DNA of 64,000 bases from the NCBI GenBank assembly GCA_016182485.1, contig JACPGH010000007.1, positions 27,656 through 91,655 on the forward strand, read 5' to 3'. The notes under the pieces are model-generated. The model saw only the letters and a program-made list of their open reading frames with translations. It ran no database searches and was not told where the DNA came from. Below are positions 1-40,535 of the stretch, one piece after another. The stretch is from Candidatus Kaiserbacteria bacterium. Its GTDB lineage: Bacteria > Patescibacteriota > Minisyncoccia > Phycocordibacterales > Phycocordibacteraceae. Every line of letters begins with the position of its first letter. Position 1 is the first letter of the stretch. The translations under genes and the position numbers were made by a program.

Positions 1-159
1 GCGCGTGCCGGCAGTGGCTCGCTCGGCGCCGTGCCTAAGAGAACCGAACGAAACGTCTACCGATTGATGCGGGGGCATGATGGATACGAAAATAATCTAT
101 TTGATGATAATGAGGTAAGTATAGCCCGCCTATTTGGTGTCGAGGGCGCTTATATACAG

Positions 160-190
160 GGAATTTTTCGGAAACTTGTGGTATAATATA
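160..190 (+). promoter_or_regulatory. Putative rnpB promoter with extended -10 element (TGgTATAAT at 179-187), ~5-10 nt upstream of the P1 helix
   Basis: Sequence cttgTGgTATAATat sits immediately upstream of the inferred 5' end of the RNase P RNA. Confidence 0.45.
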
Positions 191-213
191 AAAGGACCAG
201 GCTAGGCGATCGC

Positions 214-285
214 ACTCTGGAACGCTGGAGGCTGGATTCTGGATGCTGGTTACCCAGTCTCTAGGAACCAGCTTCTAGCCTCCAA
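214..285 (+). repeat. 72-nt hairpin-forming repeat, copy 1 (ggaggctgg...ccagcttctagcctcc), located where the P3 hairpin of rnpB would be
   Basis: Near-identical direct repeat of 533-605. Contains an internal imperfect inverted repeat. Confidence 0.7.
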
Positions 286-532
286 GGTGAGGAAAGTCCG
301 AACACGGGCCGCCCTGAAAGGGCGCGCAGCAAGTAGCGGGTAACTCCCGCACACCGCGAGGTGAGAGGTGCGAACAGAGACGCTCATGAGCGAAAGCGAA
401 TGAGCGCCCTGCGAAGCTTGATGCGAAGCAGGGCGACTTGGAGTGTATAGTCCTTCTTCGCCAAGGCTACGAAGGACATTTGTCGAAGACTCCAAATGAA
501 ACGGCAAAATCCTTACTTCCGTGCAAGGCCGT

Positions 533-605
533 ACTCTGGAGCGCTGGAGGCTGGACTCTGGATGCTGGTTTACCCAGCCTCTAGAAACCAGCTTCTAGCC
601 TCCAG
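533..605 (+). repeat. 72-nt hairpin-forming repeat, copy 2, in the P15-P17 region of rnpB
   Basis: ~90% identical to 214-285 by direct inspection. Confidence 0.7.
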
Positions 606-855
606 TTTGTGCCGCTAGATCCCGAGCGCAAGCGAGGGACCAGATAAATGATCGCCGCCGATTTTGCCTGCCGCAGGCAGCTGCAGATTCGACAAGCTCA
701 CTGTGGCGAGCTTTGTCGAGCCACAAATCGAGCGTCCCGAGCAAAGTCGAGGGACTGCGACCCTTCGACAAGCTCAGGGTACTCGATTCTGCAACCACCT
801 TCGGTGGGCAGAATCGGTACAGAATTCGGCTTATCGGCCTGGTCCATAAAACTGC

Positions 856-886
856 GAAAACCCGCCTCCCGGCGGGTTTTCGCTTC
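856..886 (+). terminator. Intrinsic terminator of rnpB (aaaacccgcc-tccc-ggcgggtttt); symmetric, so potentially bidirectional
   Basis: Perfect 10-bp GC-rich stem with a 4-nt loop followed by UUUUCG. Confidence 0.6.
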
Positions 887-905
887 CCCAAACCCCGCAG
901 CGCAC

Positions 906-975
906 ATTCTGTGAAGGTCTGACCTTCACAAGCTAAGCGTTCCCTAAATGTGAATGTGAAGGTCAGACCTTCACA
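906..975. repeat. Pair of REP-like 21-bp palindromes (TGTGAAGGTCTGACCTTCACA and its CAG-centred inverse), left flank of the REPtron
   Basis: Perfect inverted repeats tgaaggtc/gaccttca at 908-930 and 954-975. The same palindrome recurs at 1718-1742, 1763-1790 and 18548-18570. Confidence 0.8.
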
Positions 976-984: not shown

Positions 985-1695
985 CTACCAGGGTTCGAGC
1001 ATGATGGATTTGAAGTCCTCGCCTCGCGAAGCCATGTGCGCCTCGAGCAGTTCCCTCGCCTCTCCTTTGAACGAATCTCCGCTTCCGATAACTTCCGCCA
1101 TTAGCCCCTCTGCATCGTCTACGATCGGAATGGGATTCTCGAAAATGAGACCGGGCAGACTTGAGAATGGATAACGGCACGCCCATTCCCATGCGTCGTC
1201 AAAATTGACAAGCGCCGCTCGCAGCCCGCCTGGATACATCTCGAGTACATTCTTCACGAGGATATAGAACGCGAGGTAATTCAGATGCTCGCCCCTCTCG
1301 ACGACCCTTCCATGATAAGCACCCTGAAATATGCTTCCTTTCTCCTCATATTTCAGGTTGAAACACATGGACATACTTCCGCCTATTCTTTGCATAAATT
1401 TCGCCGTCCCGCCCTTCCGGATTTCTTGCAGCAACAGATGGAAATGGTTCGACAAGAGCGTCCAGGCAAGTATCCGGACCAGCGGCTCGCGTTCGGGCCA
1501 ATGCGATGGGCGTTCGAAAGCGGGAAGTTTGGCCGCTTCTCGATGCCAGTTCGGATCAGTGTAAGTATCGTTGAGCAGCAGAAGCGATCTGGTCGAGCGC
1601 CACCGATCTTCATCGTCGCGTACGATGTCCATTTCGCGAACCCCGCGCTTAGTGACGTGGACAATAGAATCCACTGAGTAGGGTTCAAGCCTCAT
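985..1695 (-). CDS. REP-associated tyrosine transposase (RAYT), an IS200/IS605-like Y1 HUH transposase
   Basis: HUH motif (SNHFHLLLQ) and a downstream YILVKNV segment resembling the RAYT Y-x-x-NPV catalytic region. Flanked on both sides by inverted pairs of the REP palindrome (REPtron layout). The true start may be an internal Met. Confidence 0.55.
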   Translation of the reverse strand: MRLEPYSVDSIVHVTKRGVREMDIVRDDEDRWRSTRSLLLLNDTYTDPNWHREAAKLPAFERPSHWPEREPLVRILAWTLLSNHFHLLLQEIRKGGTAKFMQRIGGSMSMCFNLKYEEKGSIFQGAYHGRVVERGEHLNYLAFYILVKNVLEMYPGGLRAALVNFDDAWEWACRYPFSSLPGLIFENPIPIVDDAEGLMAEVIGSGDSFKGEARELLEAHMASRGEDFKSIMLEPW

Positions 1696-2614: not shown

Positions 2615-4996
2615 CTAGACAATCTCGCAGGTGCCGCCGGCGCAGGCCAGCTCCTTCTTCATCTCGGTTTCGTCCTGCCGCTCGTACGCGATTAGTTTCG
2701 AGTAGTCCACCTTCGGGAAGCGGGCCATGCGCGCTTCATACTCCTCTTTAGTTATCGCCTCGTATGGCGCGAGGCGGTACACATGGTTCGCGCGCGGCAG
2801 GAACGAGAGTCCGCCGATGATATCCCAATTCTTCTGCAGCCAATCCACGACCCCGATCCACTCATCCTCGCCTACCGATACTGTGGCGGAAGGATTATGC
2901 TCGGTGAAATTAAGCTTTACCCGCTTCCAATATTCGAGCTGATCGAGCGCCGTGAGGTCGTCCTTGAAGCGGGCCTCCTTCGAATGGTCGGGCGCTTTCA
3001 CAGGGAATTCGAGTACGAATGTGTTCGCCTCCTCCACCGACTGCCCTACTTCGGGGTAATACGGAACGCCCTGGTCGCGCATAAGCTTGAATAGCGAATC
3101 GGTCGCGCTAATGCGCACCCGGCGGATATAGTACGGGGCGTGACGCGGATGGATGCCCGAGGCGCAATTGAAGGTTTGCGAGACAGTTCCGGAGGGCTTC
3201 ACGGCGGTGACGGACATAGAAGCCTCGATGCCGAACCGCTTCGCGTATGCTTGATTCGTCTTAATGGCCACATCGCGCATCTTGCGCATAATTTCCGGCT
3301 TGCGCGCGGCGGGCGAGTCCCATTGGCCGGTAACCGAGACGCCGAGCAGCCGCTCGGCACGGCAATGGTCGGTCCACTCCTTCGAAATGTAATTGAAATT
3401 CGTCAGCGAGGACTGGTACGTGCCGAGGATAGAGGCGAGGCGCGCCTTCCGAAGAAGCGTCGCTTCAGTGTCTCCCGCGCGCGCGATCACCTCGGAGAGA
3501 TTGCAGAATTGCTTCGACTGGAGGATGATCTCCGCGCACGGGTTGGTACCGATCGGGCCGCGCACGGTCATGTCTTCTCCGATGAATCCGATCTTCTTGA
3601 AATATTCTGCCCGCCGCTTCGGAAGCGTGATGGCCAGAGAGCCGCGGTTGAAGATACCCCGCTCTCCGGAGCCGCTCTTCATAAGCGCGACCCACTCATC
3701 CATCAGCTCCGCATTGGTAGGCTGGCTCTCGTAAACGGCGGAGTTATTCGCGACTGAGCGGTGCGGATCCGTCATATAGAACTGGCCCTTCTTGGCGTCG
3801 CGCATCTCGACGTCGTCGAGATCCGAGAGCGAGATCATCGCCGTGCGGCGAACGCCTCCAGACACTATGGCTTCGCCTATCTTGCAGACGATGTCATGCA
3901 CGTCGATATTGCGAAGGCGGCGGCCCTGGCGCGAGAGTATGCGTTCGCGGGCAAAGGCGAGAAGTGAACGCAGGGGTTCGGGGCCCGAAGCCTTTCCGCC
4001 CATCGTCTTGAGGCGCGCGCCGGCCGGTCGAACTTTCGAGAAGTCGAAGGAGACATCTTTCCCCGCATACCAAGTCTTGAGACCGAGCGTGAGCGCATTG
4101 CACCAGCCCTCGCTCGAATCTTCGACCGTGTGAGTCTGGAGTTTCGCCCCCGTCTGCTTCATTATCTGCGGCAGCTGCTCGACATTTTGGCTCTCGACGG
4201 CGAAGCCGACGCCGCAGCCGCGCGAAGAAAGGTACATGACCTCGGCAAAATCCTCGAGCTTGGTAGGCGCAGCAAACGTACAGTTGTACGCGCACGTATT
4301 GCAGCGGCGCGCGGCTTCGCCTGCGAACTGCATGAGCCGCATCGAGGGCATCACCTCCTGCTTGAGGATGCCCGTACGTATTTCGGTATATTCCTTGTCG
4401 GCGAGTTTGTTGCCAAGATTCTCCCGCATAAAATTCATGTACCGGTCCACCGTCTCTATCCAGGTTTCGCGCCGGCCCTCTTCGGGAATCCATTTCGCAT
4501 AGGTCCGCAGATAAACGAACTCGCCGAGCGCATTCCCTTCAAAATATTTCCTGCTCTCTTCCGCCAGCTTCTTCACCTGTGGAGGGATATCGACGTGCGC
4601 CGCGCGCAGCTGCGCGCGCTTGTCTCGGTACAGAATATAGGCCTTCGCCGTTTTGACGTAATCATTCAAGATCAGGTATTTCTCTACAGAATCCTGCATG
4701 CCCTCGACCGTCGGGAGAAAGTTCTTATATTTCCTCGCGAAGCGGGCCAATTCTCCGGCCACCTGATGTGCGACCAGCGTAGCGTCGTCCTGGCTGCCTT
4801 CGCCCGCGGCAGTCATGCCCTTCCAAATCGCGGTGGCGATTTTATCGAAATCGAAAGAAACAAGACGTCCGTCTCGCTTCTCGATCTGCGGGATCATTTC
4901 GCGATACCGCAGTGTTTCTTTAGAGATTGTGGGAGCGGCCGCTTTTGCAACCGGGATTACGGCAGTTTTGGAACGGATTTTGGCGGCCTTGGACAT
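2615..4996 (-). CDS. Ribonucleotide reductase large chain with N-terminal ATP-cone; likely class II (B12-dependent, NrdJ-like), since no nrdB is nearby
   Basis: ATP-cone-like N-terminus (KRDGRLVSFDFDKI). Active-site motif GTNPCAEI. Cys-rich C-terminal tail (CAGGTCEIV). 793 aa. Confidence 0.8.
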   Translation of the reverse strand: MSKAAKIRSKTAVIPVAKAAAPTISKETLRYREMIPQIEKRDGRLVSFDFDKIATAIWKGMTAAGEGSQDDATLVAHQVAGELARFARKYKNFLPTVEGMQDSVEKYLILNDYVKTAKAYILYRDKRAQLRAAHVDIPPQVKKLAEESRKYFEGNALGEFVYLRTYAKWIPEEGRRETWIETVDRYMNFMRENLGNKLADKEYTEIRTGILKQEVMPSMRLMQFAGEAARRCNTCAYNCTFAAPTKLEDFAEVMYLSSRGCGVGFAVESQNVEQLPQIMKQTGAKLQTHTVEDSSEGWCNALTLGLKTWYAGKDVSFDFSKVRPAGARLKTMGGKASGPEPLRSLLAFARERILSRQGRRLRNIDVHDIVCKIGEAIVSGGVRRTAMISLSDLDDVEMRDAKKGQFYMTDPHRSVANNSAVYESQPTNAELMDEWVALMKSGSGERGIFNRGSLAITLPKRRAEYFKKIGFIGEDMTVRGPIGTNPCAEIILQSKQFCNLSEVIARAGDTEATLLRKARLASILGTYQSSLTNFNYISKEWTDHCRAERLLGVSVTGQWDSPAARKPEIMRKMRDVAIKTNQAYAKRFGIEASMSVTAVKPSGTVSQTFNCASGIHPRHAPYYIRRVRISATDSLFKLMRDQGVPYYPEVGQSVEEANTFVLEFPVKAPDHSKEARFKDDLTALDQLEYWKRVKLNFTEHNPSATVSVGEDEWIGVVDWLQKNWDIIGGLSFLPRANHVYRLAPYEAITKEEYEARMARFPKVDYSKLIAYERQDETEMKKELACAGGTCEIV

Positions 4997-5081: not shown

Positions 5082-5540
5082 TTATTGCGAAACGTTCGGC
5101 AGATTTTTCAACGAGAACAACGTACCGGTGGCGACTCCGTACATTCGAGCAAAGCCCGCGGCTGTCTCAAGGACATAATGAGTTGGCAGAGCGGGGTAAA
5201 AGACATTCGGAAAGCTCGAGGCAGCCACATCGCTCGCGATAGATATGACTTGTCCTTTATCATCCAGCCAGAAAATATCTATCGGGACAAGCATATCCTT
5301 CATCCATATGCCGTAACGCTCGCTTTTCGGAAAAACTAAAAGCATCCCGGAATCTTCCGGGATGCTTTCTCGACCGCTAAGCCCCTTTTCCCGCGCGGCA
5401 GGAGTTGTAGCAAATTCGATCTTTAAGGACAGGTCGTCGAGCTTAACTACAGGCTCGTTCAGAGCGTATGTCCTATAGACAAGCAGGGCCCCCACGATAA
5501 TTACGCACCCTATCAACAGAGATGCTATCCATCTCGCCAT
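5082..5540 (-). CDS. DUF192 (COG1430) family protein with N-terminal signal/TM segment
   Basis: Motifs GLSGRESIPEDSGMLLVF and GIWMKDMLVPIDIFWLD are typical of DUF192. Confidence 0.6.
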   Translation of the reverse strand: MARWIASLLIGCVIIVGALLVYRTYALNEPVVKLDDLSLKIEFATTPAAREKGLSGRESIPEDSGMLLVFPKSERYGIWMKDMLVPIDIFWLDDKGQVISIASDVAASSFPNVFYPALPTHYVLETAAGFARMYGVATGTLFSLKNLPNVSQ

Positions 5541-5848: not shown

Positions 5849-5935
5849 GGAGGCGTCGCATAGTGGTCTAGTGCACCGCCTTGGAAAGGCGGCAGGCCGG
5901 AAACGGTCTCGAGAGTTCGAATCTCTCCGCCTCCG
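5849..5935 (+). tRNA. tRNA-Ser (anticodon GGA), class II with long variable arm; CCA not encoded
   Basis: Acceptor stem ggaggcg/cgcctcc, D-arm, anticodon stem ccgcc/ggcgg with loop uuGGAaa, long variable arm, T-arm gagag-ttcgaat-ctctc, discriminator G. Confidence 0.85.
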
Positions 5936-5936
5936 C

Positions 5937-8437: not shown

Positions 8438-9595
8438 TTAACGTATCGCGCCCGCGACCGCTTTGACCACGCGCGGGTCGAGCATGTCGGGAATGATCTT
8501 GTCCGCCGCGGGCCGGGCGACAAGCGCCGCGAGCGCGCGAGCGGCGCGCAGCTTCGCGGCTTCAGTTATCTGCCGCACGCCGCGGTCGAGCGCGCCGCGG
8601 AAGACCCCCGGGAATACGAGCGAGTTGTTGATCTGGTTGGGGAAGTCGCTCCGGCCGGTCGCGACGACGACGGCGCCGGCTTTCTTCGCCACGTCCGGGA
8701 ATATTTCCGGCTCCGGATTCGCCATTGCGAAGACGATGGCCCTCGGCGCCATGCTGCGGACATGGCCTGCCGATAGGAGCCCTTTGCCGGAGAGGCCGAT
8801 GAATACGTCGGCGCCGACCATCGCTTCATCGAGCCCGCCCTTCACCTTGCGCGGATTCGTGAGCTTGGCGAGCTCGGCTTTATTTTCATTCAAGTTCTCG
8901 CGGCCGGCATAGAGCGTGCCTGTGCGGTCGAGCATAACGATGTCGCGCACTCCCGCCGCAATAAGGAGCTTCGCGGTCCCGGTGCCGGCCGCGCCAGCGC
9001 CGCTTATCACTATCTTCAATTCCTTAAGAGTCTTTTTCACCACCTTCGCGGCATTGGTGAGCCCCGCGAGCACCACGATCGCCGTGCCGTGCTGGTCGTC
9101 GTGCATAACGGGAATGTCGAGCGCTTCGATGAGGCGCTCCTCGATGTCGAAGCACTTGGGCGCCGCGATGTCCTCGAGATTAATGCCGCCGAAAGCCGGC
9201 GCGATCGCCTTCACGACCTGCACTATCTCCTCCGGTTCTTGCGTCGAAAGAACGATCGGCCACGCGTCCACTCCTGCTTTTTCTTTAAATATGAGCGCCT
9301 TCCCTTCCATGACCGGCAGGGCGCCATAGGGGCCGATATTCCCCAGCCCAAGCACGGCCGAGCCGTCGGAGACTACCGCTACGCTGTTTTTCTTGACCGA
9401 TAATTTGCGCGCCTCCTCCGGATGCTCCGCCAGATATCTCGAGGCGACCGCGACGCCCGGCGTATACCACAGCGAGAAATCCTTTTTTTCCTTTAGCTTC
9501 ACGCGCGCCTTGGTCTCCACCCGTGCGCCCTGTTTCTTGAATGCGGTCAATATCTTTTTTGATTTTGTATCCATAGATAGACCGTCAGTATACAT
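8438..9595 (-). CDS. NAD(P)-dependent malic enzyme (small form)
   Basis: YTPGVA motif, Rossmann GAGAAG, and the overall malic-enzyme/MaeB N-domain layout. 385 aa. Confidence 0.8.
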   Translation of the reverse strand: MYTDGLSMDTKSKKILTAFKKQGARVETKARVKLKEKKDFSLWYTPGVAVASRYLAEHPEEARKLSVKKNSVAVVSDGSAVLGLGNIGPYGALPVMEGKALIFKEKAGVDAWPIVLSTQEPEEIVQVVKAIAPAFGGINLEDIAAPKCFDIEERLIEALDIPVMHDDQHGTAIVVLAGLTNAAKVVKKTLKELKIVISGAGAAGTGTAKLLIAAGVRDIVMLDRTGTLYAGRENLNENKAELAKLTNPRKVKGGLDEAMVGADVFIGLSGKGLLSAGHVRSMAPRAIVFAMANPEPEIFPDVAKKAGAVVVATGRSDFPNQINNSLVFPGVFRGALDRGVRQITEAAKLRAARALAALVARPAADKIIPDMLDPRVVKAVAGAIR

Positions 9596-11793: not shown

Positions 11794-11796
11794 CAA

Positions 11797-11890
11797 ATTT
11801 TCAATGCTCAATTTCGCAATTTTTAATCAATTTTCAAACATTGATACATTGGGCATTATTTGAAAATTGGAAATTGTAAATTGAAAATTA
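11797..11890. repeat. AT-rich imperfect-palindrome element, family 1 (arms caattttcaa / ttgaaaattg around a loop acattgatacattgg)
   Basis: The same arm/loop layout recurs in every spacer from 11797 to 18339. Confidence 0.75.
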
Positions 11891-11902
11891 TGTTAGACTA
11901 AA

Positions 11903-12889
11903 ATGATGGATTTCCTCGCTATCGGCGACACGACCGTAGACGAATTTATCCGGCTCAAAGAAGCGAAGATCTCTTGCGACGAGAACAGGGATCATTGCAC
12001 TATTACGTTCCCGTGGGGCGAGAAAATTCCCTACGAGTCTTCGGTGCTCCTCCCCGCCGTCGGCAATGCGGCGAATGCGGCCGTAGCGGCGGCGCGCCTC
12101 GGACTCTCTGCGGGCCTCGTGAGCAATGTAGGTAATGACCGTTTCGGCGAAGAGACGCTCGCGGTTTTCCAGCGGGAAGGCGTCGATGTCTCCCATACGC
12201 GCGTCAACGACGGCATCCCTACGAATCACCACTACGTCCTATATTACGATTCCGAGCGGACCATCCTTATCCGGCACGAGGCGTATCCGTACGCTCTGCC
12301 GGAGAATATGACCGCCCCGAAATGGATATACCTCTCCTCGCTCGGCGAAGGCGCGCATGCCTTCCATGACGAACTCGCTGCGTGGCTCGCGGACCACCCG
12401 GAAACCAAGCTCGCTTTCCAGCCGGGCACGTTCCAGATACAGATTGGGCGGGAACGATTGAGAAATTTATATGCGCAAGCGGCAGTCTTCGCGAGTAACA
12501 AGCAGGAGGCGGAAAACATCCTCGGGGTTGGGGACACCGACGTCAGGAGTCTCCTTGAGCAAATGCGGGCGCTGGGGCCGAAAATTGTTCTTATCACAAA
12601 TGGCGTCGCCGGCGCCTACGGCTTCGATGGCGAGAAAATGCTCAAAGTCCCGATGTACCCGGACCCCAAGCCGCCTTATGAGCGCACCGGCGCCGGCGAC
12701 GCCGCCACCGCAACCTTCGTAGCCGCGCTCGCGCTCGGCAAACCTCTGGAAGAAGCGCTTCGCTGGGGACCGATCAACTCGATGTCGGTCGTCCAATTCC
12801 TCGGCGCGCAAGAAGGCCTGCTCTCTCGCGACGCGCTCGAGAAACTGCTCGCCGACGCGCCCGAATCGTACGCAGTAACCACGCTCTAA
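11903..12889 (+). CDS. PfkB-family carbohydrate kinase (ribokinase-like)
   Basis: N-terminal GG motif region and C-terminal TGAGDA anion-hole motif. Confidence 0.75.
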   Translation: MMDFLAIGDTTVDEFIRLKEAKISCDENRDHCTITFPWGEKIPYESSVLLPAVGNAANAAVAAARLGLSAGLVSNVGNDRFGEETLAVFQREGVDVSHTRVNDGIPTNHHYVLYYDSERTILIRHEAYPYALPENMTAPKWIYLSSLGEGAHAFHDELAAWLADHPETKLAFQPGTFQIQIGRERLRNLYAQAAVFASNKQEAENILGVGDTDVRSLLEQMRALGPKIVLITNGVAGAYGFDGEKMLKVPMYPDPKPPYERTGAGDAATATFVAALALGKPLEEALRWGPINSMSVVQFLGAQEGLLSRDALEKLLADAPESYAVTTL

Positions 12890-12892
12890 TTT

Positions 12893-13010
12893 TCAATTAC
12901 CAATTTTCAATTTACATTGAATTTTCAAAGCTTCAATTTTCAAACATTAATACATTGGAAATTGGAACATTATTTGAAAATTGTAAATTGCAAAATTGAA
13001 AATTATTTGG
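12893..13010. repeat. Family-1 AT-rich palindromic element (loop caaacattaatacattgg)
   Basis: Arms caattttcaa ... ttgaaaattg. Inverse orientation of the copy at 16709-16802. Confidence 0.75.
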
Positions 13011-13151
13011 GCTGTTCGAGCCCGTACATCACCCGATTCCCGAAGGTTTCCGCGAGCGTAACATCTGTCGCCACGCGCACGATGAGCAGGGCCGCGCCGC
13101 CGCCAATGATCGTAATGAGCAATGCTCCGATATAAGAATTCACGCAGGCCC

Positions 13152-14165
13152 TCATGCTGCCAATACTATATCGCGTACGAGCGCTTTTGCCGCCTCGATA
13201 ATGTGGGTAACATCAAGCCCGTAGCGCGCCAACAGTTCCTGGGGCGTACCCGATTGGCCGAATTGATCTTGTATCCCGAGCCGTTTGATGGACACGACGT
13301 GTCCATCAGACAAGAATTCCGCGACGGCGCTCCCGAAGCCTCCGGCCGTTTGGTGTTCTTCTAGAGTAAGTACGCGGCCCGCGCTTTCCGCCGCTTCGAG
13401 TATCGCCCCGGTATCGAGGGGCTTCACGGTCGGCACATGGAGTACGACCGAATCGATTCCCTGTTCTTCGAGAGCGCGCGCGGCTTCGAGCGCGGCGTAG
13501 CTCAAGGAACCGGTCGAGAATATGGCGATTTCTGGTTTCTGGTTTCTGGTTTCTGGTTCCCAGAGTATAAGCGCCTTCCCGATCTCAAATGGCGTTTCGC
13601 GAGTGGTGAACACCGGAGTCGCCGCGCGTCCGAAACGTAAATATACAGGCTCTCCCAGGGCAGCCGCCGCAATGACTGCCTTGCGCGCCTCCTCGGCGTC
13701 CGCCGGAGCGATGACCGTCATCCCCGGCAGCATCCGCATCATGCCTATGTCCTCGAGCATCTGGTGCGTGGCGCCGTCGGCGCCGACCGATACGCCCGCA
13801 TGCATCCCGCACACGATGACCGGCATATTGTTGAGAGCAATCGTGGTGCGTATCTGCTCATAATTGCGCCCGGGATTAAACGCGGCATAGCTTGCGATGA
13901 AAGGAATTTTTCCCGCCGCCGCCATGCCCGCCGCCACAGTGGCCATATTCTGTTCCGCGACGCCCATCTCGATGAACCGGTCCGGGAAGGCTTTTTGAAA
14001 TTGTTCGGCGCGGGTGGATTCGGCCAAATCGGCGCAAAGCACTACGACGCGCGCATCCTTTTCTCCCGCCTCCACGCTTCCCGTTCCGAACCCGTCGCGC
14101 GTCGGCGCCGTCTCGATATCGTTCGAAAAAATTTTCTGCGAAAGCTTTGCGGAAAGATCCAACAT
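13152..14165 (-). CDS. Transketolase, C-terminal section (split transketolase subunit B)
   Basis: Pyrimidine-binding and C-terminal domains. Carries an in-frame (tggtttc)x3 microsatellite at 13533-13556. Confidence 0.85.
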   Translation of the reverse strand: MLDLSAKLSQKIFSNDIETAPTRDGFGTGSVEAGEKDARVVVLCADLAESTRAEQFQKAFPDRFIEMGVAEQNMATVAAGMAAAGKIPFIASYAAFNPGRNYEQIRTTIALNNMPVIVCGMHAGVSVGADGATHQMLEDIGMMRMLPGMTVIAPADAEEARKAVIAAAALGEPVYLRFGRAATPVFTTRETPFEIGKALILWEPETRNQKPEIAIFSTGSLSYAALEAARALEEQGIDSVVLHVPTVKPLDTGAILEAAESAGRVLTLEEHQTAGGFGSAVAEFLSDGHVVSIKRLGIQDQFGQSGTPQELLARYGLDVTHIIEAAKALVRDIVLAA

Positions 14166-14294
14166 AATTTTCGATTTACAATTTACAATTTACAAATAAG
14201 GACCAATTTCCAATTTTCAAACAAAGATTCCCGTTTGAGCATTGCACATTGAAAATTTCATTGGAAATTGCAAAATTGAAAATTGAAAATTCTT
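14166..14294. repeat. Family-1 AT-rich palindromic element
   Basis: Arms caatttacaattt... / ...ttgcaaaattgaaaattgaaaatt. Confidence 0.75.
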
Positions 14295-15209
14295 TCATGT
14301 TCTCTGTATTTGAGCTAAGAACCGCTCCCCTTCCTCCGCCGAAGGCGGCTTCCCATGCCACCTATAATCCCCTTCGATTTCCGGCACGCCCTTGCCGGCG
14401 GTCGTATGCGCGATGATTAGCGTCGGAGCGTCCGATACTGCCTTCGCTTCTTCAACCGCCCCGACAAATGCGTCCAAATCGTGCCCATCCACTTCGAGCA
14501 CGCGCCAGTTAAACGCGCGGTACTTCTCGGCGAGCGGTTCGAGCGGCATGACCTCCTCGGTATTGCCGTCGATTTGAATGTTGTTGCGATCCATGATCGC
14601 CGTGAGCCCGGCGAGACGGTGCTTCCCCGCGAACATGGCCGCCTCCCAAGTATTCCCCTCGTCCTGCTCGCCGTCGCTCATCACGCAGTAAATTCTAGGC
14701 GCTAGGCTATAGGCGCTAGGCTCTAGCTCTGATCCGTTTTTAAAATTGGAAATTGAAAATTGTCCGCCGGAGGCGGATCCGCCTTTGGCGGAAAAATTTT
14801 TAAGAGCCCACGCCATTCCCGCCGCCTGCGAGAGGCCCTCGCCAAGAGGCCCTGAGGTGGTTTCGAGACCTGTCAGCCGCGTTCTCTCGGGATGCCCTTG
14901 GAGCCGCGAGCCGAATTTCCGCAATGTGAGACATTCTTCGACCGGGAAATAGCCGGCATGAGCCAGAGTCGCGTACAAGACTGGGCAGATATGCCCGTTG
15001 CTGAGTACGAGCCTATCTCGTTCTTCCCAATCCGGCCGCGCAGGGTCGTGTTTCAAGATATGAAAATAAAAGGCGGCGAAGATGTCCGCCATGTCGAGCG
15101 GCCCCGCCGTGTGGCCGCTGCCCGCGGCGACAAGCATCCGGATCACAGTCTCGCGAATGGCCCGAGCCTTTCCCTCAAGCAGCCGAATCTCCTCATCAGT
15201 CAAAGCCAT
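14295..15209 (-). CDS. Transketolase, N-terminal section (TPP-binding subunit A); contains an in-frame ~25-aa repeat-derived insert
   Basis: GHxxxxxD and GDGE TPP motifs. An insertion (…KNFSAKGGSASGGQFSISNFKNGSELEPSAYSLAP…) is encoded by 14695-14775. Confidence 0.85.
   Translation of the reverse strand: MALTDEEIRLLEGKARAIRETVIRMLVAAGSGHTAGPLDMADIFAAFYFHILKHDPARPDWEERDRLVLSNGHICPVLYATLAHAGYFPVEECLTLRKFGSRLQGHPERTRLTGLETTSGPLGEGLSQAAGMAWALKNFSAKGGSASGGQFSISNFKNGSELEPSAYSLAPRIYCVMSDGEQDEGNTWEAAMFAGKHRLAGLTAIMDRNNIQIDGNTEEVMPLEPLAEKYRAFNWRVLEVDGHDLDAFVGAVEEAKAVSDAPTLIIAHTTAGKGVPEIEGDYRWHGKPPSAEEGERFLAQIQRT
14695..14775. repeat. Composite in-frame insertion inside the transketolase gene: ctaggcg/ctaggct tandem repeat plus a family-1 AT-rich motif (aaaattggaaattgaaaattg)
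   Basis: Direct sequence identity to the intergenic family-1 arms. Reading frame preserved. Confidence 0.7.
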
Positions 15210-15235
15210 GCTCTAAGTATACAGCATGAAACTAC

Positions 15236-15365
15236 CCTAATTTTTCAATTTACAATTTCCAATTTTCAAATAATTACCAATCTCCAATTTTCAAACAAAA
15301 TCCTTGTTTGGACATTGAATCATTGAAAATTGATTGAAAATTGCAAAACTAAACATTGAAAATTC
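15236..15365. repeat. Family-1 AT-rich palindromic element
   Basis: caatttacaatttccaattttcaa ... cattgaaaattgattgaaaattg. Confidence 0.75.
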
Positions 15366-16112
15366 TTAAACCCCGTAGGGATATTGGGCGATATACAACG
15401 CCTCGAACTCGGCGATGGCCTTTGCCGGATCTGCGGCTCGCAATATGCTCGAACCGACCACGAGATTCGAGACTCCGGCGGCAATAAGCCGCTTGGCATT
15501 ATGCAGGGAAACGCCGCCGTCAACCTGGATCGGGAGCCGCGGATATTTCTCGCGCAGGACGCGGATTTTCTCGAATACGCGCTCGTCGAAGGGCTGTCCT
15601 TGGCGGCCGATCCGCGCGATACCCATGCACTGCACGTACTGAACACAGCGGATACAGGGCTTGTCCTTCGTAGCTTCAGCGAAGAAGGGCTCGATGAGCG
15701 CAAGACTGCTCGCGAGATTAATTGCGAGACCGATCGAGAAGCCGCCGGCCTCTCCGAACCGTTCGGAGAGCGAGCCGAGAAGGCGCGGCAGGTCTATGGG
15801 GCTCTCGGCATGTATCGTGAGGCGGCTGGCGCCGAGAGCGAGCCATGCCGCCGCAGCCGCCTCCGCATCGATACACATGATATCGACTTCATACTCGACC
15901 GCGCCGAGCCGCGGCAACATGCCTTCCCAATTTTCAATTTCCAATTTCCAATTTTCAATGCTATACGGCCAGGAGGCAGGCGAGGCGAACTGCCCGTCTA
16001 CGACGTCGATCTGGATACGGTCAATCGAGGGAAGACTCGTGAGGAGTGCGAGTTTTTCTGCCAGCTCTTTTTTGGATGCGGGCAAAACGGCTGGAACGAC
16101 AAATGACATAGC
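15366..16112 (-). CDS. rpe: Ribulose-phosphate 3-epimerase
   Basis: IDVVDGQF…, HxMV-equivalent region, C-terminal VDGG(V)…GSSIL. Start set at MSFVVPAV; the upstream ORF extension only reads through the AT-rich element. Contains an in-frame repeat insert at 15927-15960 (IENWKLEIENW). Confidence 0.8.
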   Translation of the reverse strand, partial: AMSFVVPAVLPASKKELAEKLALLTSLPSIDRIQIDVVDGQFASPASWPYSIENWKLEIENWEGMLPRLGAVEYEVDIMCIDAEAAAAAWLALGASRLTIHAESPIDLPRLLGSLSERFGEAGGFSIGLAINLASSLALIEPFFAEATKDKPCIRCVQYVQCMGIARIGRQGQPFDERVFEKIRVLREKYPRLPIQVDGGVSLHNAKRLIAAGVSNLVVGSSILRAADPAKAIAEFEALYIAQYPYGV

Positions 16113-16216
16113 AAGAAAATTTTCAATTTTCAATTTTGCAATTTTCAAACGTTTGAAAATTAATACATTGAAAATTATTTGTAAATTGAAAATTGTAAAT
16201 TGTAAATTTGGTCATT
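16113..16216. repeat. Family-1 AT-rich palindromic element
   Basis: ttttcaattttcaattttgcaattttcaaacg ... ttgtaaattgaaaattgtaaattg. Confidence 0.75.
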
Positions 16217-16708
16217 CTAGAATTTCGCCAGCCTTCGCGCGTGGCGCGGCGAATCAGAGAACGGCGTGTTCAGGAAAATGCGGACCGCTTCGTCGGCTTC
16301 GCTCCCCGAAACGAACCGGGCGCCGATGCAGAGCACGTTCGCGTTATTGTGCCGGCGCGGGAGGCGCACGGCGTCATACCCGTCCTCCGAGCGGCCGCCT
16401 TCGATGTCGAGCGCTTCGGTCACCCGCATGGGGCCGTAGAAGACCGCGGCGCGGACGCCGGGCACTCGATTGGCGCACATCGCTTCGCCCTGCCCGCTGC
16501 CCCCGAGCGCGATGCCGCGCGCTTCGGGCTCGGCCGCCACGCGGCGGGCGAGCGCCCCGACGACGTCCGGATAATCGTCATCCGGCGCGAGCGAGTACGC
16601 GCCCAGGTCTTCGGCCTCGTGTCCGAGCGCCCGCACGTGCTCGAGGAGCGCGTTCTTCAGGTCAAACCCGGCGTGGTCAGAAGCAAAATAAATTTTCATA
16701 ATTTTCAA
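16217..16708 (-). CDS. rpiB: Ribose-5-phosphate isomerase B (RpiB/LacAB family)
   Basis: MKIYFASDHAGF… and the catalytic Cys region (GSGQGEAMCANR). Confidence 0.85.
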   Translation of the reverse strand: MKIMKIYFASDHAGFDLKNALLEHVRALGHEAEDLGAYSLAPDDDYPDVVGALARRVAAEPEARGIALGGSGQGEAMCANRVPGVRAAVFYGPMRVTEALDIEGGRSEDGYDAVRLPRRHNNANVLCIGARFVSGSEADEAVRIFLNTPFSDSPRHARRLAKF

Positions 16709-16802
16709 TTTTGCAATTTACAATTTTCAAATTATGTCCCAATTTCCAATGTATTAATGTTTGAAAATTTATTGTAAATTGCAAATTGATAATTGAGAAT
16801 TG
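16709..16802. repeat. Family-1 AT-rich palindromic element, inverse orientation
   Basis: Loop ccaatgtattaatgtttg is the reverse complement of the loop in the 12893-13010 copy. Confidence 0.75.
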
Positions 16803-17852
16803 TCACTTGGCCGTGCCGGCCGCTAGGACGTGCCGGACAAGTGACTCCGTATACCCCATCTCGTTGTCGTACCAAGCGAGCACCTTGACGAGATTGCCGT
16901 CCACGACCCGGGTCATGCCGAGGTCAGCGATCGAGGCGCACGGCTCTCCCACGATATCGCTTGAAACCAGCTCCTCATCGGTGGTCATGAAGAGGCCCTC
17001 CCAACGCGAGTCAGCCGCCGCCTTCCGCAAAATGTCATTGACTTCCTCGGCGGATGTCGGCCGCTTCGAAACGAAGGTGATATCCGCGATAGAGCCGGCT
17101 GCCACCGGCACGCGCAGGCTTATCCCGTCGAATTTCCCGGCGAGCGACGGGTACGCCTGCGTCACGGCGACGGCCGCGCCGGTCGAAGTCGGCACGATAT
17201 TAAGCGCGGCCGCCCTCCCTTCCTTCTTGTCTTTTCGCGAAGGCCCGTCGACGATAGACTGACTCGCTGTGTAAGCATGCGCCGTCGAGAGTATCGCCTT
17301 TTCGATACCAAGCGCCTCGTCGAGTATCGCTATGACCGGACTCGCGGCATTCGTCGTGCACGACGCATTCGAACTTATCTGACATGTCGAGAGCTTCTCC
17401 TCATTCACCCCCATCAGCACCGTGGCTCCTAGCGACTGGCTGCTAGTGGCTAGTGGTTGGTTTTTGACCGGTGCAGTGATGACAACACGCTTCGCTCCGG
17501 CCGCGAGATGCGCGCTCGCCTTCTCATAATCGGTGAACAATCCCGTAGACTCGACCGCTACATCGATACCGAGCTCCCCCCAAGGCAAATTCGCCGGCTC
17601 CTTTTCCGAGAAGAACTTCACTTCCTTCCCGTCAATCAGCAAAGCTGATTGCCCCGAGCTTGTCGAGGGGCTGATCCCGACCGAAAATGGCGCGCGCCCA
17701 TATACGGTGTCGTACTTCAATAAATAGGTTAGGTTTTCAAGCGAGCCGAGATCATTCACGGCGACCACTTCGATTCCGCGGCCCTGACTTCTCCTCGCAA
17801 ACGCGCGCCCTATTCGTCCGAATCCGTTAATGGCGACTCTAATGGGTTTCAT
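16803..17852 (-). CDS. gap: Glyceraldehyde-3-phosphate dehydrogenase (type I)
   Basis: NGFGRIGR Rossmann motif and catalytic SCTTN. Start set at MKPIRVAING; the upstream ORF extension is read-through of the repeat. In-frame repeat-derived inserts at ~17423-17460 and ~17640-17680. Confidence 0.85.
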   Translation of the reverse strand: MKPIRVAINGFGRIGRAFARRSQGRGIEVVAVNDLGSLENLTYLLKYDTVYGRAPFSVGISPSTSSGQSALLIDGKEVKFFSEKEPANLPWGELGIDVAVESTGLFTDYEKASAHLAAGAKRVVITAPVKNQPLATSSQSLGATVLMGVNEEKLSTCQISSNASCTTNAASPVIAILDEALGIEKAILSTAHAYTASQSIVDGPSRKDKKEGRAAALNIVPTSTGAAVAVTQAYPSLAGKFDGISLRVPVAAGSIADITFVSKRPTSAEEVNDILRKAAADSRWEGLFMTTDEELVSSDIVGEPCASIADLGMTRVVDGNLVKVLAWYDNEMGYTESLVRHVLAAGTAK

Positions 17853-17933
17853 GATGATAGTGTAGCATGGCCAAAAATGAGAATTTTCAATTTTGCAATT
17901 TTCAATTTTCAATAAATTTTCAAGGCTCAATTT
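17853..17933. repeat. Family-1 element, left-arm type (caattttcaa repeats), abutting the 3' end of the 4HB gene
   Basis: gagaattttcaattttgcaattttcaattttcaataaattttcaaggctcaattttcaaac. Confidence 0.7.
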
Positions 17934-18293
17934 TCAAACGGATCGCGCCGAGGCAGCAATTTTTTGGAAAATTAATGTTAATTCTTGGCTCTCTTTCTGT
18001 AATCTCCCTAAAGCATCGTCTTCTATCGTCCCACAGGACACCAGCATCCTAAGCCAGTGCTTCGTTTCTTGTATCTCTTTTTTGCATATGTAAATCTTGT
18101 TGACGAAATCTCTTTTTGAGCTGGCGCCGTTCGCTTCCATATAATTGGCTCCTACGCTCGTACCAGAGCGTAAAAGTTGGTTAACAATTGGATCTGTTAT
18201 ATGACTACGATGGATTTTCTTACAAAGCGATATAATTTCTTCACCAAACCGAGCCGTTCTTTCTTCTAGATCGTATTTCTTCGTTTGATCCAT
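17934..18293 (-). CDS. Four-helix-bundle protein (PF05635/TIGR02436, '23S rRNA intervening-sequence protein' family)
   Basis: 119 aa. Motifs LRSGTSVGANYMEA and RDFVNKIYICKKEIQETKHWL match the 4HB family. Sits exactly between a left arm and a right arm of a family-1 element. Confidence 0.75.
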   Translation of the reverse strand: MDQTKKYDLEERTARFGEEIISLCKKIHRSHITDPIVNQLLRSGTSVGANYMEANGASSKRDFVNKIYICKKEIQETKHWLRMLVSCGTIEDDALGRLQKESQELTLIFQKIAASARSV

Positions 18294-18339
18294 TGAAAAT
18301 TGGTCCTTATTTGAAAATTGGAAATTGTAAATTGAAAAA
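18294..18339. repeat. Family-1 element, right-arm type (ttgaaaattg repeats), upstream of the 4HB gene
   Basis: ccattgaaaattggtccttatttgaaaattggaaattgtaaattgaaaaatt. Confidence 0.7.
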
Positions 18340-21300
18340 TTATTGTGGCGTTGTCGAAGTTTCGGTAGCCGCGGAGAGGGGCTCGATTACTGTCACTAGC
18401 CTCGAAACCGAACCCGTGTTCCCCGCCGCGTCCGTCGCGCTGTAGGTGAGCGTGTATGAGCCGGCTGTTGCGGTATCTGCGGAACCCGAGGTCGCGATTT
18501 TTGCCGTTAGGTCTCCGTCCGTTTCATCTGTAGCGGTCGCCCCCGGGTCTGTGAAGGTCTGACCTTCACTGATCTGCATCGCCGCCTCTCCGTTCAAGGT
18601 CACGATCGGAGGTTGAGAGTCTGAATCCGGACTTATGACTTCCGACTCTGGAGTAGCGCTCGACTCTTGACTCGTGACTTGTGACTCTTGACTTGTTGTA
18701 CCGGCTACTACGCTCCCGTTGCCTACGATCACCGACCGCGTCGCCATGATGCTCCCATTCGGCCCGAGTACGCGATAGGTGATTATGTAGGTCGTCTCGC
18801 TTGAGGTATCAATAGTCCCCGGGCCGACTTCCGACTCCACGCCGTTGATATAAGTCGTTACGGGCGCACCCCCTGCATCGATTCCCGGATCAACGAAGTT
18901 CCCCCCGACCTCGATCAGATAAGGATTATCCCCGAGCACCGTAATCCATTGGGTGCTCGTGTTTGAATTGGAAATTGAAAATTGAGAATTGGAAATTTGT
19001 GACTCTGGCGTGCTTGTCGCCATCTGCCCTTCCGTCTGGATCAAGAAGTAATCGAAGGAGGTGTCTCCCGCCTGCGGGCTCTCGAGCACGAGGCGGAAGG
19101 AGCCGTCCTTCTTCTCCGCGATATACCAGGAGCCGGTCGTCGAGGCGGTGAAGGTGACGAATATCTTGGTCGAGGGCTTCACGTAGGCGTTCTGCACCTC
19201 CGCGACCGTGTTGCCGGCGATTATTTTCACCGTCCCGGCCGAGCTCGTACCGGCGGAATTCGTCGCCGCGACGAACTGGTCGGCCACGAGCGTGCCGAAC
19301 TGCGCGATGCCCTTCGCGATATAGGCGCCAAAGGCGTTAAAGGCGCTCGCGAGCGAGGTCGTCGAGAAGGAGACCGGCGAGCCGGAGGCAGAGGAGACCG
19401 CGCCGCTCTCGAGCGCCGCGAGGCGCGCCTCGAGCGAGGTGAGCCGCACCTCGGCGCGATCGACCTTCTCGGCGAGCGTCTGCACGCCCGCGAGGGTCAG
19501 GGTCGCGAGCTTGTAGAGATCCACGCCGTTGCCGTCTATCGAGAGGATCTCGGGCGCCGTCTCCCGCGCATCCTCGGCAATGAGGCCGAGCCGGAGCGGG
19601 TTGCTCCCGGCCTCTGCCGCGTAGCGATACGTCGCGACCTTGAGCCCGCGAACCTTGCCCAGCACGGCCTCGGTCGAGCTCGCGCTCATATAATTGATGT
19701 CGGTCTTGAGCGCGCGCGTCGAAGTGTTCACGAAGCTCGTCGCGCTCACTTCCTGCGCCGTGAGGCGATTGATGTAGCCCTCGTTCGTCACCGCGAGATT
19801 CGATGTCCACACGGAGGTCGAGGCGACAAAAGAATCCGCCGCTACGTTGCCATATACTGTGAACAAGCCGGCAGCTTGGTGCGGAAACGATCCTGTCACT
19901 TCGATTTCTGAGGGTTCGATTCCCTCTGCCGGCTTTTGCAGGTTTTCCACAATGCTTGCCGGGGTGCTTGACGCGTAAACCCAGTTTGCTATAATAGGTG
20001 CGGTGACAGGCTCGTTTCTCGCAGAAATCGAACCCTCGTAAGAGAACCCGAAGTAGCCGCCCGTAAGGGCGGTTATTTCGTTTTCCAGCGTCCCTACCCT
20101 CCCCGCGAGCCGCGTCGAAGTGGTGCTCAGCTCCTGTATCGCCAGTATCATCGGCGCGGCGAGGCCGTCGTAATTGATGGAGAGCGTGCCGTCGGGCGTG
20201 AGCGAGGTGGGGGCGGAAGTCTGTACGAGATCCGGGAACACCTCTCGCACCTGCTGGGCGATGAGGCCGAATTGCTTCTGGCTCGAGCGCTCCGCCGCCG
20301 GATCCCAGTAGAAAGAAACGGGCCGGAGCGCGTCGATCGCAGACAGCCCGCTCGCTGTCGCGAGCGGGCTTATATCCTGCTTCAGCCGCTCGTCAGACGC
20401 GGAGCAGGCGAGGAGGCCGTTGCCGTTAGACGTGAAGCCGGTGCAGTTCTTGTAGCCGTCGAAGGTGACGTTCGCCGTCTCCCCGCCGACTTCAAGCAGG
20501 GTCGCGGGCGTCGTAGTCCCGAGGCCTATCGCGCTCGCGCTCATGTAGATCGGCTGGACGCCGCTCCCCACGAGGCGCGAGGTGATGATGAGATTGCCGG
20601 TTGAGGCGTCGATGCCGAATTCGCCGATGTAGTTGGGGTCGGAGCCGTTGTAGATGGTCATGGCGGAAGCGCTCCCCGCGGTCGTCACGATCGAGAAGCG
20701 CTCGCTTTGTCCGCCGGGGCTTGCCGTCCCAATCCCGACATCACCGGAGTCGTCGATCACGAACGGCGTCGGGTCGCCTGCCTGGTCGTTCACGGCGAAG
20801 GAGAGCGCGGCGCTCGTATTCTCGACCGCGAACTTCGCGAACGGCGTGCTCGAGGCGATGCCGACCCGCTCGTTCGTGGCGACATAGAGCGAGGAAGTGG
20901 CGGTGAGGGTCGTACCGGTCCCCGCATAGTATGGGAACTGCCCGGCCGTGCCGGAACCGACCGTCCCTGTCCCGCTCCCGCCTCCCACGCAGACTCCGTT
21001 AATCGCAAAACATCCTGTTCGTATATCAATGCCGGAGCCGAACGTGGACGTGGCGGTCGCCGAAATGTTAATCGTATTGGCTCCCGTATCTCCAAGCGAG
21101 AGCAGCGTCCCCGGACTCGTCGTCCCGATGCCGACGTTGCCTTCTATTATCATCCCGTTAGTGGGAGCCGCCGCACCGTAATTTGTTCCCACGGAAACCC
21201 CTCCAGCAATACTCAATTTACTTCCCGGAGTAGTGGTGCCAATACCAACCCTCTGGTTGTACCCTCCAGAGACACCGCCAATAAAGAACGGCGTGTAGCT

Positions 21301-40347: not shown

Positions 40348-40374
40348 ATGCGAAAGATACTTCATAAAGCACCA

Positions 40375-40535
40375 AATCTCAAATCGCAAGATCCAAGATG
40401 AGTGCCCAAGAACCAACCTCTAAGAACCAAACAAAAACCAATGTCCAAAGGACCAATGTTTTATTTTTGAAGATTGGTGCTTGAAATTTGTTTGGTACTT
40501 GGGGTTTGGTGCTTGGAATTTAGTATTTTTGAGAG
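40375..40535. repeat. Family-2 AT-rich imperfect-palindrome element (arms caagaacca… / …ttggtgcttgg), complete copy between gatB and obg
   Basis: Left arm ccaagaaccaacctctaagaaccaaacaaaaaccaatg and right arm cattggtc…ttggtgcttgaaatttgtttggtacttggggtttggtgcttgg are roughly reverse-complementary. Confidence 0.7.

Follow-up and report, generated by a model that had tools for sequence, protein, structure and literature searches.

How did the RNase P RNA gene (rnpB) that opens this stretch of Candidatus Kaiserbacteria DNA become so long, and does an intact ribozyme still lie within it? The stretch, called the window below, comprises 64,000 nt (contig JACPGH010000007.1, positions 27,656 to 91,655 of the forward strand), and an earlier note on it, made without database searches, had read the region as an RNase P RNA oversized by hairpins inserted into peripheral helices. 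Based upon model alignment, comparison with syntenic relatives and direct reading of the core strands, we consider it highly probable that positions 194-849 are a working rnpB with tolerated hairpin expansions at the tips of its helices, one of which would have been copied within the gene. Inside the gene, a reduced but normal type-A core of some 350 nt is preserved whole, with P1, P2, P4, J3/4, J18/2, J2/4, P8, P9, P12 and P18. The parts of the locus are as follows:

179-187, plus strand: extended -10 element TGGTATAAT, read by eye, seven bases 5' of G194
194-849, plus strand: rnpB, bacterial type-A RNase P RNA by RF00010 alignment, about 652 nt (P1 to P1 is 194-845)
194-204 and 205-211, plus strand: 5' strands of P1 and P2, with partners at 834-845 and 650-656
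214-288, plus strand: hairpin copy 1, which replaces or extends P3
289-303, plus strand: J3/4 and the 5' strand of P4, GAGGAAAGTCCGAAC, with its partner at 819-833
336-350, plus strand: P8, GCGGGTAACTCCCGC
367-381, plus strand: core signature GGTGCGAACAGAGAC, read directly
437-498, plus strand: last helix of the specificity domain (S-domain), P14-like, with a nested hairpin GTCCTTCTTCGCCAAGGCTACGAAGGAC at 450-477, from alignment A1 and the minimum-free-energy (MFE) fold
533-606, plus strand: hairpin copy 2, on the tip of a simple P15/16 hairpin
620-639, plus strand: P18 hairpin, TCCCGAGC GCAA GCGAGGGA, with tandem G.A/A.G mismatches
640-650, plus strand: J18/2, CCAGATAAATG
657-818, plus strand: branched insert at the P19 position, between the 3' strands of P2 and P4
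819-833, plus strand: 3' strand of P4, ACAGAATTCGGCTTA, followed by the 3' strand of P1 at 834-845
854-883, plus strand: hairpin GCGAAAACCCGCC/GGCGGGTTTTCGC directly 3' of rnpB, a perfect 13 bp (inverted repeat I3, 100% complementary)

In a permissive Rfam scan of window positions 100-950, the model RF00010 (RNaseP_bact_a) matched 194-849 on the plus strand with all of its positions, 1-367, covered (E 7.3e-20, 66.4 bits). This full coverage, together with synteny and the presence of the core strands, bears out the identification of the region as an RNase P RNA. Both P4 strands, J3/4, J18/2, J2/4, P1, P2, P8 and P18 are found, and the core signatures pointed out earlier (the P4 strands, P8 and P1) could be read directly: P1 is paired at 10 of 10 positions (194-203 with 836-845), and P2 pairs 205-211 with 650-656. 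P4 has GAA/UUC on its two strands in place of the Rfam consensus GGG/CCC, a compensated change. The unconstrained MFE fold of 194-849 recovers P1, P2, P8, P9, P12 and P18 and forms each extra segment as a separate domain. The TATA of the -10 element TGGTATAAT is unchanged in a four-way alignment of the window with the relatives L005, L006 and L007 (alignment A1), and from the position of this element transcription would start at about G194, while the hairpin at 854-883 likely serves as a terminator. Two independent Logan assemblies (L001 and L002) are 100% identical to the window over 850 nt; thus, the long form of the gene is not an assembly artefact.

The core also has the look of a reduced ribozyme. 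The 3' side of P15/16 shows no GGU (CCA-binding) motif. The sole tRNA gene that ARAGORN finds in the window, tRNA-Ser(GGA) at 5849-5936 on the plus strand, does not encode its 3' CCA, which is consistent with the absence of a GGU/UGG motif from P15 of rnpB. Both features fit the report of Lui et al. 2021 (PLoS Comput Biol, PMC8172020) for two thirds of the genomes of the Candidate Phyla Radiation (CPR): in the part of that paper drawn on here, P13, P14, P16 and P17 are frequently lost, and the UGG motif is lost in 23/35.

The class II RNR beside rnpB is 100% identical to a protein from a Candidatus Kaiserbacteria metagenome-assembled genome, and the divergent TPR protein matches locus tag HYV30_04105 of that organism, which places the window in the CPR (Patescibacteria). 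Through these two neighbouring proteins we obtained the corresponding loci of relatives. The gene order RNR - rnpB - TPR - MurJ - LepA is common to the window, L005, L006, L007, L134 and L135, and each of these relatives has a compact rnpB without the window's inserts, measuring, from P1 to P1, 350 nt in L005 (RF00010 score 127.7 bits), 316 nt in L006 (123.2 bits), 349 nt in L007 (115.9 bits), 366 nt in L134 and 380 nt in L135. The closest relative of the TPR protein (P0122, 72% identity) has a 538-nt gap at the expected rnpB site. On a wider scale, GTDB representative genomes were scanned for the P4 variant of this lineage followed by P8, which gave at least 120 loci, mostly from Patescibacteria; the figures that follow apply among the matches listed. 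Nearly all of them have their two P4 strands 207-416 nt apart; in the window the strands are separated by 530 nt, a value that only two Buchananbacteria and one Magasanikbacteria approach or exceed. Median length among 85 genes with a well-paired P1 and the same P4 variant is 371 nt, and the window gene, at 652 nt, is the second longest, after L096 (811 nt). In this respect, too, the earlier description of an RNA oversized by hairpin inserts in peripheral helices stands. P1 and P2 covary across the 85 genes, most of their positions showing all four Watson-Crick pair types and the others several; two P1 pairs have changed in a compensated way between L007 and the window, and compensatory P1 changes separate the window from L005 as well. 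The compensatory pairing in relatives that had been named for P1 and P4 is thus present, and extends to P2.

Several further large genes from CPR bacteria were seen in passing:

L096, 248-965, plus strand: Buchananbacteria, very large rnpB with about 380 nt inserted in P12
L109, 1960-2522, plus strand: Magasanikbacteria, rnpB of 563 nt with expansions in P12, P16/17 and P19
L093, 603-982, minus strand: another very large CPR rnpB

In L006, positions 732-862 match the LOOT RNA with 62 bits.

Where does the additional sequence of the window gene lie? Expansions were defined by alignment A1, with alignment A2 and a survey of P19 also used. There are four, all on helix tips: at P3, at the last S-domain helix, at P15/16 and at the P19 position. 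The earlier note had counted three and had missed the nested hairpin at 450-477. P3 takes up 75 nt (214-288), against about 18-20 nt in relatives; the helix at 437-498, with its nested hairpin, is about 40 nt longer than in L005, L006 and L007; P15/16 bears a hairpin of 74 nt (533-606), against a short one in relatives; and the P19 position holds 161 nt (657-818), a position that in most relatives is empty or bears a hairpin of about 15-25 nt. Each of these helices can therefore take 40-160 extra nt in an apparently intact ribozyme gene. The S-domain hairpin (CUUCGC..GCUACG) is also found in the S-domain of L092, L026 and L038, and at P19 of L135.

The expansions at P3 and P15/16 are two copies of one hairpin. 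Positions 214-285 and 533-604 are 93% identical over 72 nt (blastn, E 6e-23), and no other full copy was found in the 64-kb window or in the 6.4 kb upstream of it. The duplication described in the earlier note is therefore real, but its second copy, assigned there to a P15-P17 region, sits on the tip of a simple P15/16 hairpin with no separate P16 or P17, comparable to L005 and L006, in which one short hairpin stands in place of those two helices. Each copy forms a hairpin of about 30 bp (-44.3 and -49.8 kcal/mol for copies 1 and 2, z -7.4 and -8.4 against shuffles). The arms of copy 1 have a 7-nt period (CTGGAnn), with CTGG at 217, 225, 232, 239 and 246 and C[CT]AG at 254, 261, 268 and 275, and copy 2 shows the same repeat pattern. 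Both fold better as the sense than as the antisense strand, copy 1 by 13.5 kcal/mol (antisense -30.8 kcal/mol) and copy 2 by 9.5 kcal/mol (antisense -40.3 kcal/mol), owing to their G-U pairs, of which copy 1 has six and copy 2 three. A bias of this kind would be expected if the pairing were kept up at the level of the RNA, to which the strand scores and two-sided pair changes of the P19 module, given below, also point.

The base and flanks of copy 2 (GGCCGTACTCTGGAG..CTCCAGTTTGTGCC) resemble the short native P15/16 hairpin of L036 (GGCCGTATTCTAGTA GAAA TACTAGTTTGTGCC). The basal part of the copied hairpin thus looks native to P15/16, and from this likeness we infer that copying went from P15/16 to P3. 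In the scenario that we favour, hairpin-forming repeat DNA would have been added at four loop tips that face away from the catalytic centre. A hairpin would first have grown on the native P15/16 stem, through amplification of the 7-nt unit CTGGAnn on one arm and of its complement on the other. Template switching, or non-allelic gene conversion between the hairpin tips, would next have placed a copy of it on P3 of the same gene, and the P19 insert would be a structured module assembled from inverted pairs of a dispersed motif resembling the repetitive extragenic palindrome (REP). Expressed together with an active ribozyme, the inserts would be kept as independently folding extensions of little help or harm to catalysis, and so nearly neutral, with their pairing selected because they are part of the transcript.

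Searches for the hairpin outside rnpB gave no relative. The pattern CTGGAGGCTGGA..TTCTAGCCTCCA had no match in 185,579 GTDB representative genomes and none in IMG/VR. Five matches in JGI metagenomes were set aside: they lie on unrelated contigs of 63-69% GC, outside rnpB, in hairpins of the (CTGGAGG)n/(CCTCCAG)n type, and are analogues rather than homologues; the 3' arm that they share is imposed by the search pattern. In the permissive Rfam scan of 100-950 no family explained the hairpins or the P19 insert, and the microRNA and sRNA matches were those of generic long hairpins. Within the window, the 5' arm of the rnpB hairpin has a weakly significant counterpart in a 7-nt-repeat-like segment at 35481-35523 (GTTGGAGGCTGGTTGCTGGAGGCTGGTTACTGG; 89% similarity over 28 nt). 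This segment lies inside a giant open reading frame (ORF) at 18340-37398 on the minus strand, of 6352 aa with about 28 repeats, whose unit on the coding strand, GGCAACGTCGGCATCGGGACGACGAGTCC, reads GNVGIGTTSP when translated by eye, and whose product is probably a repetitive surface protein.

Hairpins of the same architecture as those in rnpB, with different repeat units, are frequent between genes elsewhere in the window. Many of these intergenic hairpins, of 100-140 nt with arms of tandem 7-nt repeats, lie in 11794-19010 and 39670-41980, for example at 11794-11910, 12885-13025, 14160-14300, 15235-15370, 16115-16230 and 16695-16810. Their units are CAATTTn/nAAATTG (AAATTGn) at 11.8-19 kb and CCAAGAA/TTCTTGG (TTGGTnC) at 39.6-42 kb.

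The insert at P19 is of another kind. In the MFE fold it is closed by a 17-bp stem, 657-673 with 802-818, and it has the following parts:

669-679, plus strand: hairlet
690-718, plus strand: hairpin X
735-780, plus strand: arm H2
793-807, plus strand: hairlet

The string TTCGACAAGCTCA occurs exactly at 688-700 and 764-776, with an inverted copy within hairpin X. The repeat-rich segment that had been noticed at 680-780 is accordingly present, but as a portion of the 161-nt insert. Parts of 657-818 are 85-89% identical to segments inside the rnpB genes of other Patescibacteria, and a profile search combined with a covariance model, over about 1 Mb of Patescibacteria DNA, found a module of about 125 nt in four lineages, in rnpB only. 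It lies at P19 in the window and in L081 (Nomurabacteria), at the tip of P9 in L036, and at the tip of P15/16 in L123. Sense and antisense scores in the four genes are 130 and 58, 133 and 88, 126 and 86, and 99 and 64 bits. All four copies of the module, like both 72-nt hairpins, are in sense orientation, and the ends of the module are complementary (657-673 with 802-818); no target-site duplication could be recognised by eye for the hairpins or for the module.

The module is laid out as a, a hairlet, a', the long arm H2, a2, a second hairlet (AACCACC NNNN GGUGG) and a2'. Because a resembles a2, and a' resembles a2', it can fold in two ways, as three hairpins in a row or as a four-way junction closed by a/a2'. 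In both folds 94-96% of cells are paired, against 31-56% in slid controls, and either fold has 10-12 pairs in which both partners have changed, where shuffles give about 5 (0/500), these counts coming from four sequences only. Hairpin X is an extra of the window's copy. In L067, a Saccharibacterium, P19 is a bare closing stem (CCAAUUUUGUUCGCC UCU GGUGGGCAAGAUUGG), so that the module may have originated at P19. A tRNA-like reading of the four-way junction was rejected: ARAGORN gives tRNA-Ser alone in the window, and by eye the hairlets are without T-loop or D-loop features.

The motif CCCTTCGACAAGCTCAGGG makes up arm H2 and hairpin X as inverted pairs, and inverted pairs of a short and widely dispersed motif, CCTTCGACARGCTCAGG, occur in the module as a whole. 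A scan of IMG/VR for CCTTCGACANNCTCAGG gave at least 135 matches at at least 120 loci. Among the matches listed, the two free positions are GG or AG in 89%, and at least 11 contigs carry between two and five copies, frequently in inverted pairs; both properties argue for a real, widespread repeat rather than chance. In Patescibacteria the short motif is found in inverted orientation in the rnpB of L092 (P5.1) and of L023 (S-domain), and after a tRNA gene in L030. The Rfam and literature searches, the latter with DNA strings as well as translated peptides, gave neither a family nor a name for it. A permissive Rfam scan of four viral motif loci likewise gave no explaining family, with AaHKsRNA41 sharing merely a similar inverted motif. 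In the viral-classified IMG/VR contigs (L136-L255, 51-68% GC) the widespread repeat takes the form CCTTCGACA[AG]GCTCAGG, and it often stands in inverted pairs or longer hairpins (CCGTTCR CCCT..AGGG YGAACGG), as in L208 at 5104-5212 and 9256-9314 and in L184 at 3992-4086. Within the window, the hairpin CCCCGAGCTTGTCGAGGGG at 17650-17672 is a copy of the short motif inside an ORF at 16803-17930 on the minus strand, and may be one of the coding-sequence insertions mentioned in the earlier note.

Is copying of a hairpin within rnpB peculiar to this genome? An all-against-all comparison of 118 rnpB genes, whose output includes some false matches around J5/15, gave the following cases:

L078: hairpin at the S-domain and P15-17, 61 nt, 95%
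L030: hairpin at P3 and P15/16, 31 nt, 93.5%
L007: hairpin at the S-domain and P15/16, 28 nt, 96%
L005: hairpin at the S-domain and P19, 22 nt, 95%, marginal (E 3e-4)

At least four lineages besides the window thus have an rnpB in which the same hairpin stands at two non-homologous sites, and the pair in L030 occupies the same two helices as in the window, with unrelated sequence. A further Candidatus Kaiserbacteria gene (L056, RIFCSPLOWO2_01_FULL_55_19; rnpB at 1-383 on the minus strand, cut by the contig end) has a (GAAATCC)n-type hairpin of about 90 nt at P15/16 and, by eye, near-identical small hairpins at P3 and P5.1 (CACACTGCAGAAGTGTGACGG and TCATACTGCATAAGTGTGACGG). These observations lead us to a tentative and still rather doubtful generalisation, namely that patescibacterial rnpB genes hold a small repertoire of hairpin modules that are copied among peripheral helices (P3, P5.1, P9, the last S-domain helix, P15/16 and P19), within a gene and between lineages. 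It draws on the rnpB-only module of about 125 nt at three helices, on two-position hairpins in at least five lineages, and on the P3 and P15/16 pairs having arisen twice independently. If it holds, either a copying mechanism directed to rnpB (homing) or selection favouring identical hairpins in pairs would have to be at work, the pairs perhaps being binding sites of a dimeric partner; on the alternative view, the gene passively tolerates junk.

Selection for the hairpins themselves deserves to be taken further. The added hairpins and the P19 module might be a functional gain, serving as protein-binding platforms, possibly for a dimer that recognises two identical hairpins, or as tertiary struts that replace contacts lost with P13/P14, P16/P17 and P6 in reduced CPR ribozymes. 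The maintained pairing, the sense-specific G-U pairs and the compensatory changes would all be expected if so, as would a module confined to rnpB and always in sense across about 1 Mb of Patescibacteria DNA, and identical hairpins at P3 and P15/16 that appeared independently in the window and in L030; the frequent absence of P13, P14, P16 and P17 from CPR RNase P RNAs (PMC8172020, in the part drawn on here) would leave struts something to replace. Yet the closest relatives (L007, L134, L135, L005 and L006) do without any of these inserts, and the hairpin sequences differ wholly between lineages. The module sits on three helices of differing direction (P19, P9 and P15/16), which is hard to square with one fixed tertiary contact, and the repeat from which it is built is dispersed, with occurrences in coding and intergenic DNA as well as in viral contigs. 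On balance, we regard a functional gain as unlikely.

The neighbourhood of rnpB brings up another possible origin for the hairpins:

985-1695, minus strand: RAYT-like Y1 (IS200-like) transposase gene, 120 nt downstream of rnpB

The palindrome TGTGAAGGTCTGACCTTCACA lies in doublets on both sides of this gene (906-980 and 1719-1788), with one more copy 17 kb away at 18548-18569, and the predicted gene and its palindromes are a REP/RAYT-type arrangement in a CPR genome. In relatives, Y1_Tnp-like genes lie between rnpB and the TPR gene (L007 4120-4788, L135 3162-3839 and L134 3167-3838); the Y1 gene of the window is different from these and lies on the opposite side of rnpB. In L134 a reverse transcriptase gene (RVT_1, 1658-2725) also adjoins rnpB. 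The hairpins could then be copies of a genome-wide mobile palindromic element (a REP/REPIN or a miniature inverted-repeat transposable element, MITE) that was moved by a Y1 transposase and landed in rnpB by chance. In addition to the transposase genes adjoining rnpB in the window, L007, L134 and L135, this idea can draw on the window's wealth of long intergenic 7-nt-repeat hairpins and on the P19 insert, with its inverted pairs of a motif dispersed in many genomes. However, no other full copy of either hairpin lies in the 64-kb window and 6.4 kb upstream, or in the GTDB representatives and IMG/VR, while the JGI metagenome matches are unrelated high-GC hairpins. As a direct source of the hairpins, the RAYT-like gene was rejected: it is flanked by its own, different REP, TGTGAAGGTCTGACCTTCACA, which is unrelated to the rnpB hairpins, and its protein is 29% identical to the L007 Y1 protein, encoded on the other side of rnpB. 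The lack of a target-site duplication evident by eye, and the uniform sense orientation of both hairpins and all four module copies, would also speak against transposition, and we judge a mobile element improbable as the source.

A third possibility concerns the fate of the transcript. The inserts might be intervening sequences (IVS) that RNase III cuts out after transcription, in the manner of fragmented bacterial rRNAs, leaving a ribozyme that is a non-covalent assembly of three to four RNA pieces. The duplexes are near-perfect and long (about 30 bp in either copy of the 72-nt hairpin, 17 bp in the closing stem of the P19 insert) and would suit such processing, and the known length range of RNase III substrates includes duplexes as long as these. 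The hairpins are placed on helix tips, where a break spares the flanking helix, and the inserts fold as autonomous domains in the MFE structure. Active RNase P RNA has been reconstituted from fragments in the case of E. coli M1 RNA. However, the G-U pairs and small internal loops of the hairpins are equally compatible with helices that are retained, and the repeats in cyanobacterial rnpB are said to stay in the mature RNA. We regard excision as decidedly improbable. Weakest of all is a decaying pseudogene or an assembly chimera, to which we give hardly any credence: the Infernal score is below the gathering threshold and direct repeats can mislead assemblers, but no core strand or junction is damaged, P1 and P2 pair completely, the gene retains its promoter and downstream hairpin and lies at the syntenic rnpB site, and independent assemblies are identical.

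The reading that we prefer, a working rnpB with tolerated and nearly neutral expansions, has points against it as well. The gathering score of RF00010 is 100 bits, and because the window gene, at 66.4 bits, falls below this cut-off, a scan of the whole window at the gathering threshold reported the tRNA alone and missed rnpB. The Infernal check proposed in the earlier note was thus formally failed; we nevertheless keep the identification, as the whole model is aligned (E 7e-20), and we attribute the shortfall to the cost of four long inserts, insert-free syntenic orthologues scoring 116-128 bits. The direction of copying, from P15/16 to P3, depends on likeness to a single distant relative, L036. 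About 70 kb of the genome was covered, so that a second, compact rnpB or more copies of the hairpin could lie elsewhere. Direct repeats that are 93% identical and 319 nt apart would be expected to favour deletion, as well as alternative pairing between the hairpins (pair I1), and their persistence could mean a very recent origin, or selection for a function rather than neutrality. Finally, the window and L030 independently acquired identical hairpins at precisely P3 and P15/16, and a functional explanation accounts for this no less well than a neutral one.

What follows from a tolerated-expansion rnpB is in part practical. Standard pipelines would probably report this genome as being without RNase P RNA, and an insert-aware search is needed before rnpB is called absent. 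For the evolution of the ribozyme, the hairpin copied between two helices, its recurrence in other lineages and the shared module at different helices suggest that the periphery of CPR RNase P RNA exchanges hairpins far more freely than in other bacteria. In the literature searched, there was no description of intragenic hairpin duplication in rnpB, of its recurrence across lineages, of a module at alternative helices, or of REP-like motif pairs there.

How, then, does this gene compare with systems already described? It shares with the type-A RNA of RF00010 the P1-P4 core, J3/4 GAGGAAAGUCC, the GGGUAAC of P8, J18/2 AGAUAAAUG and the 3' strand of P4 ACAGAAUUCGGCUUA, and differs from it in a length of about 652 nt with four expansions, in a score of 66 bits, and in having a single P15/16 hairpin without separate P16 and P17. 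The nearest likeness in the hairpins themselves is to the short tandemly repeated repetitive (STRR) heptanucleotides within rnpB of heterocyst-forming cyanobacteria, reportedly described by Vioque in 1997 (Nucleic Acids Res 25:3471) and said to lie in P12. In both cases, tandem repeats of 7-nt period lie in a peripheral helix of a type-A rnpB, a period that the window hairpins show when tested. Unlike the cyanobacterial repeats, those of the window belong to a Kaiserbacteria host, form both arms of a hairpin, and have that hairpin present twice; nor did the hairpin show up as a dispersed family, with two copies in the roughly 70 kb covered, and the other 7-nt hairpins of the window use other units.

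The IVS and expansion segments of rRNA are similar in being hairpin extras on peripheral helix tips of an essential structured RNA that vary between close relatives. The host RNA is a different one, however, and IVS are defined by RNase III excision, which in this rnpB would be hypothetical. REP/REPIN-RAYT systems and the palindromic elements of Rickettsia have in common with the window inverted pairs of short palindromic repeats that are tolerated inside functional genes, and a RAYT-like gene with flanking REP doublets in fact adjoins this rnpB. Unlike REPs, hairpins 1 and 2 are unrelated to the neighbour's REP and had no other copies in the window, upstream, in the GTDB representatives or in IMG/VR, and the module of about 125 nt was found in rnpB only, in about 1 Mb of Patescibacteria DNA, and always in sense.

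The closest comparison is with the CPR RNase P RNAs of Lui et al. 2021 (PMC8172020). From the part of that paper drawn on here, it is already known that these RNAs are divergent and often missed by Rfam, with rnpB missed at default Rfam thresholds in 10/35 genomes, and that they have large helix extensions, for example an extended P15. The window gene agrees with them in organism group, in its detection below threshold and in its helix extensions. Relative to that same part of the paper, what the window adds is one hairpin placed at two helices, hairpins built from 7-nt repeats, and a module carried at different helices.

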